Program-made: the position numbers and the translations under genes
Part shown: in pieces, positions 4,168-4,268 of the stretch
Layout: every line of letters starts with the position of its first letter
How positions within the stretch are numbered: the stretch's first letter is position 1
The notes under the pieces: model-generated
What the model was told of the DNA's origin: nothing
Database searches by the model: none
Seen by the model: only the letters and a program-made list of their open reading frames with translations
IMG/VR virus record: IMGVR_UViG_2671180695_000012
DNA from: a virus
Lineage: Duplodnaviria; Heunggongvirae; Uroviricota; Caudoviricetes
Direction: 5' to 3' (one strand)
DNA length: 5,816 nt

Positions 4168-4194
4168 ATAAAAAACCCGCTCGGCGGCGGGTTG
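4168..4194 (-). terminator. tR'-like intrinsic terminator downstream of the late promoter
   Basis: The minus-strand RNA reads CCCGC-CGCCGA-GCGGG followed by UUUUUUAUU, with flanking A-U pairs extending the stem. It lies about 45 nt downstream of the predicted pR' start site and immediately upstream of the tRNA array. Confidence 0.6.
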
Positions 4195-4228
4195 TAGAAA
4201 CTCTTCTAACGTCAGGCATAAAACGCCC

Positions 4229-4268
4229 ATCGTTATGACGAATTTACCACAGATTCCGGAAAAATCAA
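4229..4268 (-). promoter_or_regulatory. pR'-like late promoter with a sigma70-dependent pause element (Q engagement site)
   Basis: On the minus strand: -35 TTGATT (4263-4268), 16 bp spacer, -10 TAAATT (4241-4246), then CGTCAT and AACGAT (4229-4234). Lambda pR' (recalled) has TTGACT, TAAATT and the same AACGAT -10-like pause element at +1 to +6. It starts immediately after the Q stop codon. Confidence 0.6.

Follow-up and report, generated by a model that had tools for sequence, protein, structure and literature searches.

The question raised by this locus is whether the short interval directly behind the antiterminator gene Q in virus record IMGVR_UViG_2671180695_000012 (IMG/VR; the whole stretch analysed, 5,816 nt, is called the window) carries a lambda-type late switch, that is, a late promoter (pR'), a sigma70-dependent promoter-proximal pause, and an intrinsic terminator (tR') ahead of the late genes. 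All coordinates of the unit are given on the minus strand, with +1, the predicted transcription start, at window position 4234. The locus is very probably the late-gene control cassette of a lambdoid Escherichia coli prophage, homologous to Q-pR'-qut-tR' of lambda, and would be one more example of this textbook switch. An earlier reading made from the letters of the window (the sequence-only reading) had placed a pR'/pause/tR' unit behind Q, and what is observed here, namely the family of Q, core motifs identical to those of lambda, positions conserved into distant relatives, and a gene context leading into lysis genes, all agrees with such a unit.

At the sequence level, a set of sigma70 promoter motifs (TTGATT / 16 bp / TGn-TAAATT) adjoins Q directly, and the description given by the sequence-only reading, of TTGATT, 16 bp and TAAATT right after the Q stop on the minus strand with AACGAT 6 nt further on, was confirmed in all coordinates and motifs. 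A single perfect copy of TAAATT-N6-AACGATGGG (0 mismatches) is present in the window, and the chance expectation for this motif at up to 2 mismatches was 0.01 (window shuffles). In a comparison with lambda pR', TAAATT-N6-AACGATGGG was found to be identical: the lambda unit has TTGACT / 17 bp / TAAATT-tgactc-AACGATGGG, its AACGAT begins at position 44587 with the A that starts the 6S RNA, and 15 specified bases are common to the window and lambda units. AACGAT had been taken for the lambda-type sigma70-dependent pause sequence, and the identity with lambda of AACGAT, the following GGG, the -10 hexamer, and their spacing (including the 6-nt distance to +1) argues for this assignment. Such a pause arises when sigma70 binds a repeat of the -10 sequence; GGG at +7 to +9 strengthens it through sigma region 1.2, and its exact position is fixed by an elemental pause sequence having G at -10, a pyrimidine RNA end at -1, and G at +1 (PMC5001585). 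The elemental pause consensus was fitted at +16 in lambda and at +17 in the window (G+8, U+17, G+18), and a pause near +17 is predicted for the window.

The Q open reading frame (ORF) matched PF03589 with E = 2.6e-55 (185 bits, cut-off 26.7). PF03589 is the Q-lambda family (Pfam-to-Q-type assignment from PMC9388147), and it was the only significant result in the Pfam search of the window Q, in which the Q21 and Q82 families (PF06530, PF06323) gave no match. Lambda Q structures were matched as well (7UBM, E = 3.4e-40; 4MO1, E = 3e-27); residues 1-113 and 182-273 of the window Q align with the lambda Q of the loading-complex structure 7UBM, giving an end-to-end alignment except for one insertion, and the N-terminal nozzle-forming segment is highly conserved in the Q alignment. 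The insertion, 66 amino acids (aa) relative to lambda Q (residues 114-181, window 4553-4756, minus strand), lies at the base of the arm and brings two CxxC pairs (C117/C120, C171/C174), for a total of four CxxC(x)G-type motifs in a DnaJ-like arrangement; a sub-threshold match to the DnaJ zinc finger (CXXCXGXG) was also obtained, and the insertion is probably a second zinc site or extra zinc ribbon. The long form of Q (250-273 aa) is widespread, occurring in SfV, ES18, Fels-1, and genes annotated quuQ.

Units behind Q homologues were compared across 16 genomes, 17 phage records, and about 100 distinct close viral contigs; the viral-contig scan gave only relatives above 91% Q identity, and diversity came from the genome scan and the phage records. 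The same order, -35, spacer, -10, 5-7 nt, AAnn[A/C/G]T, and a hairpin with a T-run, was found in 24 further units (29-92% Q identity to the window), AAnn[A/C/G]T being mostly AACGAT-GGG and the hairpin and T-run starting between +28 and +50 in all 24. Hexamer positions are kept across the Q-lambda-family units, the positional equivalents of the -35 hexamer being TTGACT in lambda and P22, TTTACT in mEp237 and Kpn_R1, and TTGCAT in SfV. At least six different terminator stems were seen among the relatives (CCCGC, CCTCGC, GCCCTG, GCCTCGG, GCCCGAGG, and others); the position of the terminator is conserved and its sequence is not. P late, a qut-like site, the 5' nucleotide, and tR' are annotated in the P22 record at equivalent places, within about 60 nt, while pR' and qut are annotated in the HK620 record, and the terminator in the SfV and ES18 records. 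Within the window, a loose regular expression also returned a second AACTGTGGG motif near 3680, which, lacking a usable -35 hexamer, was taken as a chance occurrence and rejected as a second unit.

Natural variation was followed in 37 distinct near-identical loci of the window's type and in 104 distinct close loci. Among the 37, the region from -45 to +70 is almost invariant save for a few positions (Table 1), and AA..AT, GGG, and the terminator stem are essentially fixed. The search pattern [A/G]A-NN-AT-[A/G]GG fits 100 of the 104 close loci, and hexamer variation in these is confined to positions 3 and 4 (AACGAT 77, AATGAT 7, AATAAT 4, AACTAT 4, AAAGAT 3, AACAAT 3, GACAAT 1, AATTAT 1), with GGG present in 98/100 and T17 G18 in 96/100; T17 G18 was also found in SfV-type units. 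The fixed positions are those known to matter, A2 and T6 of the -10-like element, the discriminator-like GGG, and the pause site. The changes at +3 and +4 in the 37 loci (L020-L235 set) are mostly C-to-T or G-to-A, and three alleles each were seen at +3, +4, and +11; this variation may tune the strength of the pause, or may come from hypermutation of single-stranded DNA in the open or paused complex. The natural allelic series at +3/+4 could be used to test the generality of the lambda Q-loading model.

Table 1. Features of the late-switch unit and its surroundings in window coordinates, with base counts at the variable positions of the unit.
Feature	Position	Strand	Basis or remark
Q antiterminator gene, 273 aa, Q-lambda family	4274..5095	minus	PF03589, 7UBM match
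Q stop codon TAA	4276-4274	minus	sequence
pR' -35 hexamer TTGATT	4268-4263	minus	begins 5 nt past Q stop
Promoter spacer TTTCCGGAATCTGTGG, putative Q-binding element	4262-4247 (16 bp)	minus	sequence; clade conservation
Extended -10 (TGn)	T4249, G4248 (end of spacer)	minus	sequence
pR' -10 hexamer TAAATT	4246-4241	minus	identical in lambda and P22 pR'
CGTCAT between -10 and pause hexamer	4240-4235	minus	sequence
Predicted transcription start, +1 = A	4234	minus	homology only: same -10 spacing as lambda +1 (44587) and P22 annotated 5' nucleotide
Sigma70-dependent pause element, -10-like AACGAT (+1 to +6), predicted	4234-4229	minus	identical to lambda
Discriminator-like GGG (+7 to +9) of pause element	4228-4226	minus	identical to lambda
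Predicted pause site, U+17 RNA 3' end, G+18 next	4218-4217	minus	sequence against elemental pause consensus
CGTT box (+24 to +27)	4211-4208	minus	complementary to RNA 5' end AACG
tR' intrinsic terminator	stem 4193-4174; T6 4175-4170	minus	terminator scan
Leader RNA predicted from pR' to tR', 65-67 nt (counterpart of the lambda 6S RNA)	4234-4168	minus	
tRNA array Met-CAU, Lys-UUU?, Thr-UGU, Gly-UCC	3821..4130	minus	ARAGORN (4); Rfam confirms 3/4
Holin, phage 21 S type, first late protein gene	3313..3528	minus	PF04971, 1.4e-35
Variable position +3	4232		C 25, T 10, A 2 (37 loci)
Variable position +4	4231		G 26, A 7, T 4 (37 loci)
Variable position +11	4224		T 22, G 13, C 2 (37 loci)
Variable position +18			G 33, A 4 (37 loci)
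Variable position +50, terminator loop			G 31, A 6 (37 loci)
Variable position +52, terminator loop			C 33, T 4 (37 loci)

The lambda Q-binding element (QBE) is a 13-bp promoter site contacted by Q via its helix-turn-helix body and zinc-ribbon arm (PMC9388147), and QBEs of the lambda type sit between -35 and -10 (PMC9388147; PMC6266700). In the units compared here the spacer at this place differs by clade: TTTCCSGAAWCTGYG is kept in Escherichia albertii, Klebsiella phage Kpn_R1, mEp237, and Erwinia phage phiEt88 (Q 92-50% identical), the SfV-type clade has the spacer TTTTTCAAAAAAYATGG, and the lambda/P22 clade has one of its own. Spacer and Q thus co-vary by clade, which is what a QBE predicts, and the clade-specific spacer is the likely candidate for the Q-binding element.

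Set beside the named systems, the window resembles lambda in the Pfam family of Q, the core described above, an elemental pause at +16/+17, and a terminator before the late genes. It differs from lambda in its spacer (16 bp with an extended -10, versus 17 bp) and the sequence of that spacer, in its leader of about 66 versus 194 nt, in having no TTGACT before the pause element, in the probable second zinc ribbon of 66 aa in the Q arm, and in the tRNA genes that separate tR' from the lysis genes. The Q family, the compact design, and AACGAT are common to the window, P22 (gene 23 - P late - tR'), and HK620 (Q - pR'); the two phages differ from the window by a short Q (207 aa), a lambda-type spacer, a TTGAC(T/C) sigma-region-4 site, and a different, stronger terminator stem. 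Cassettes of the SfV/ES18/Qin type are like the window in their long Q (250 aa) with extra CxxC pairs and the zinc-ribbon insertion, in an initial transcribed region reading AACGATGGGC.TTGT.TG....CGTT, and in predicted leaders of 54-71 nt, but have the SfV-type spacer, TAGGAT or TAAGAT at -10, and Q proteins only 39-48% identical to that of the window.

Several points weigh against the assignment of the locus as a late-gene control cassette. The evidence for the locus is of sequence only. The pR' hexamers match consensus at 8/12 positions, which is below the threshold of 9 of a generic promoter scan, and the site was hence left uncalled; by the same count the lambda pR' hexamers reach 9/12, and the extended -10 TG may offset the weak hexamers. 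The stability of the tR' hairpin is moderate. The window spacer TTTCCGGAATCTGTGG is unlike the lambda spacer TATTGAATAAAATTGGG, the lambda QBE sequence is not conserved, and the site proposed for Q binding is taken from clade-specific conservation. In the lambda loading complex, sigma region 4 is moved onto a -35-like site just upstream of the pause element, where it touches the tip of the Q arm (PMC9388147); this site is TTGACT at -7 to -2 in lambda and P22, and at -7 to -2 of the window, within 4241-4235, TCGTCA was found instead (3/6 matches, without TTG), with TTGCTC or TTGCCC at these positions in E. albertii-type and TTTTCC in SfV-type relatives. The cassette is defined without reference to the sigma-region-4 site, a feature of how lambda Q is loaded. 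Finally, the 66-aa insertion is in the Q arm, the part that touches sigma region 4 in lambda, and details of loading may differ; long-arm Q proteins may engage sigma region 4 or DNA in another way. A Q with an enlarged arm and no sigma-region-4 site offers a usable test of the generality of the lambda Q-loading model.

The tR' hairpin (AACCCGC-CGCCGA-GCGGGTT; 7 pairs, 5 of them G-C, 6-nt loop) overlaps the T6 run, and its first base is at +42. The sequence-only reading had described a strong hairpin with U6 about 45 nt downstream; hairpin and T6 are present, starting 36 nt past AACGAT, while its strength was overstated, as the folding energy of the hairpin alone is -10.7 kcal/mol versus -26.4 for lambda tR' and -18.7 for P22 tR'. 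From +1 to the end of the T-run the predicted transcript is 65 nt, and termination may extend 1-2 nt further, in keeping with the 60-65 nt that had been given for a short transcript. The stress of that reading on a length far below the 194 nt of lambda was misplaced: in other Q-lambda-family units, leaders of 54-75 nt are predicted by the same start-to-T-run reading (P22 59, HK620 58, mEp237 55, SfV 65, ES18 68, and Kpn_R1 68 nt), the P22 terminator is annotated about 59 nt from the start, and the lambda tR' T-run ends 193-194 nt downstream of its start. By these predicted lengths, the compact unit of the window is of ordinary size, a small unit is the family norm, and the lambda 194-nt 6S RNA is an outlier, atypical for its own family. 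The accompanying claim that the QBE would be forced to lie within about 40 bp is moot, since a lambda-type QBE is upstream of +1 and transcript length therefore does not constrain it.

The terminated leader of about 66 nt might itself act as a regulatory small RNA (sRNA) in lysogens, besides being a by-product of antitermination control. This is compatible with the cassette, and is considered unlikely. In such a role, the terminator with its U-tail and the purine-rich linker AGAAGAG (+28 to +34) would bind Hfq and pair with targets, for which StxS of Stx phages (PMC7547250) and IsrK of Gifsy-1 (PMC4825925) are precedents, both being pR'-derived sRNAs that, like the predicted leader, are made constitutively right after Q and end at the first terminator. 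The whole leader folds compactly into three hairpins (-21.4 kcal/mol), but this energy is ordinary for its composition (z = -1.0; 29/200 shuffles fold equally well), and although +1 to +41 is nearly invariant in the 37 close loci except at +3, +4, and +11, most of the conservation from +1 to +20 is already explained by the pause determinants. Searching Rfam with 4140-4290 gave no family at threshold: Trp_leader scored 25.5 bits (threshold 41), and isrK (RF01394) 16.2 bits, a weak resemblance that is far under its gathering threshold of 50 bits (E = 0.12 on 151 nt), with both scores stemming mainly from the terminator hairpin. No significant match of sequence or structure was found between the window leader and StxS or IsrK (isrK 16 bits versus 50), and the Q proteins preceding these two sRNAs belong to other families. 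IsrK was rejected as a homologue, the Gifsy-1 Q being annotated as phage-82-like (Q82-like), and is treated as an analogue; it is by position alone that an sRNA role might be argued here.

A far less probable alternative is that the motifs are there by chance, that the hairpin at 4193-4170 is merely the terminator of the early-right (Q) operon, and that the late genes are driven from elsewhere. The uncalled promoter would fit this, as would the abundance of terminator-like hairpins in the window (9 found versus 5.4 expected), but the 15 lambda-matching bases have the chance expectation of 0.01 given above, the arrangement is kept behind Q in relatives down to 29% Q identity and appears among the annotations of P22 and HK620, natural variation agrees with the functional positions, and between Q and the lysis genes no other promoter-like site was found but one weak candidate before the tRNAs. 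Least credible, and rejected, is that AACGATGGG is conserved as coding sequence through its ATG (4230), which opens a 45-aa ORF (4230-4093): the ORF exists, its ATG is conserved, and the lambda record has a comparable 'orf-64' at the same place, but 4 nt separate the start from the RNA 5' end and there is neither a Shine-Dalgarno sequence nor another ribosome-binding site, the frame crosses the terminator hairpin and enters the tRNA-Met gene, in relatives it is of varied length and unrelated past about 10 codons, and the substitutions at +3, +4, and +11 show no codon pattern.

For the late-gene control cassette, a mechanism can be set out in which promoter activity, start site, pause position, termination efficiency, QBE identity, and Q-dependent read-through are all inferred from the sequence. 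In a lysogen, without Q, sigma70 polymerase would start constitutively at about 4234 from TTGATT / 16 bp / TGn-TAAATT. On promoter exit, sigma region 2 would re-bind the non-template AACGAT at +1 to +6, aided by GGG at +7 to +9 on sigma region 1.2, and the complex would scrunch and pause at about +17 at the elemental pause sequence, then escape slowly and terminate at the hairpin/U6, 4193-4170, releasing the leader of about 66 nt. Once early transcription supplies Q, it would bind the element in the -35/-10 spacer (4262-4247) and engage the paused complex, with its conserved N-terminal segment building a nozzle on the RNA exit channel; this scheme of Q loading follows PMC9388147. The modified polymerase would then pass tR' and a second terminator (3613-3598), and the tRNAs, holin, endolysin, and Rz would be expressed. 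The unit would mark the gate of late, lysis, and tRNA expression in these prophages.

A further feature of the initial transcribed region is a CGTT box. CGTT at +24 to +27 is invariant in 100/100 pattern-fitting close loci, and CGTT occurs in all AACGAT-type units, at +20 to +23 in lambda, P22, and mEp237, with TCGTT at +19 to +23 in lambda and P22. In minimum-free-energy folds, nucleotides 1-4 lie in a 5'-terminal stem in most units, with CGTT as the predicted 3' arm. Where the 5' end differs, pairing partners were also found: AAGAAT pairs with ATTCTT (7 pairs) in a lambda-Q lineage (L257, L308, L328), AAGGA with TTCTT in YeP1, and AACA with TGTT in phiEt88 and ES18. Shuffle tests of the 5' helix gave p = 0.02-0.46 per sequence, individually not significant because the downstream region is T-rich, and a combined Fisher p of about 0.003-0.009, uncorrected for relatedness, which is modest support. 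The +3/+4 variants in close relatives carry no compensating change in the CGTT box, and in a MAFFT alignment of initial transcribed regions the lambda-class arms were out of register. On this basis it is suggested only tentatively, and with more doubt than belief, that late promoters of the Q-lambda type carry a further, undescribed box able to pair with the RNA 5' end from about 20-30 nt downstream, and that every pR' transcript starts with a 5'-terminal stem-loop. If so, the stem-loop could shield late mRNA and leader from 5'-end-dependent decay, or scaffold an sRNA. As an alternative role, the box may act at the DNA level in Q-driven pause escape; the sequence just past the pause (+17 to +36) controls Q-driven scrunching and escape (Strobel and Roberts, PMC4005639).

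As a whole, the region corresponds to the stretch from Q to lysis in a lambdoid E. coli prophage. Upstream of Q are RusA and a DUF968/HNH gene. The tRNA array provides the first genes downstream of tR', and the holin is followed on the minus strand by DUF1327, lysozyme (PF00959, 6.2e-25), and Rz (PF03245, 4.6e-49), to 1235. The 161 nt around the unit are present in 2463/5426 complete E. coli genomes (about 45%), and in phage mEp460_ev081, where the pause hexamer is AATGAT. In database records of such prophages, the only labels are 'antitermination protein Q' and the tRNAs. Taken alone the result matters little, and amounts to annotating the late switch of this type of prophage.

The tRNA block (3590-4170, minus strand) resembles a separate inserted module with its own terminator at the end. 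Four phages whose Q and pR' are different, PhiR47_1 among them, are homologous to the window from exactly past the tR' T-run onward, and a candidate promoter of its own lies just before tRNA-Met (TTGCGG at 4168-4163, 17 bp, TATTAT at 4145-4140), kept in PhiR47_1 as TTGCAG / 17 bp / TATTAT. Within the array, tRNA-Lys (UUU; 3977-4053, minus strand) was called by ARAGORN, yet the Rfam tRNA model was silent there at E <= 1. This locus is the position of argN (tRNA-Arg) in Stx phages, the tRNA-Met/Lys pair being 84.5% identical to the Stx-phage ileZ-argN pair, and tRNA-Lys may be degenerate or anticodon-switched. The second terminator-like hairpin (3613-3598, minus strand; GCCCGC-TTTT-GCGGGC, then TTTTCTTTT; -13.7 kcal/mol) has a T-run to about 3590 and precedes the holin start codon (3528) by about 60-70 nt. 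With two terminators before the holin, Q-modified polymerase would need to read through both. The 235 nt from tRNA-Gly to the holin (3588-3822, minus strand) gave no Rfam match, and were found only in four phages carrying the same tRNA module, at 98% identity. They are predicted to form three long near-perfect hairpins and the terminator, at -85 kcal/mol (z = -5.9, with 0/200 shuffles as stable); one possible role of these hairpins is as RNase III processing sites.

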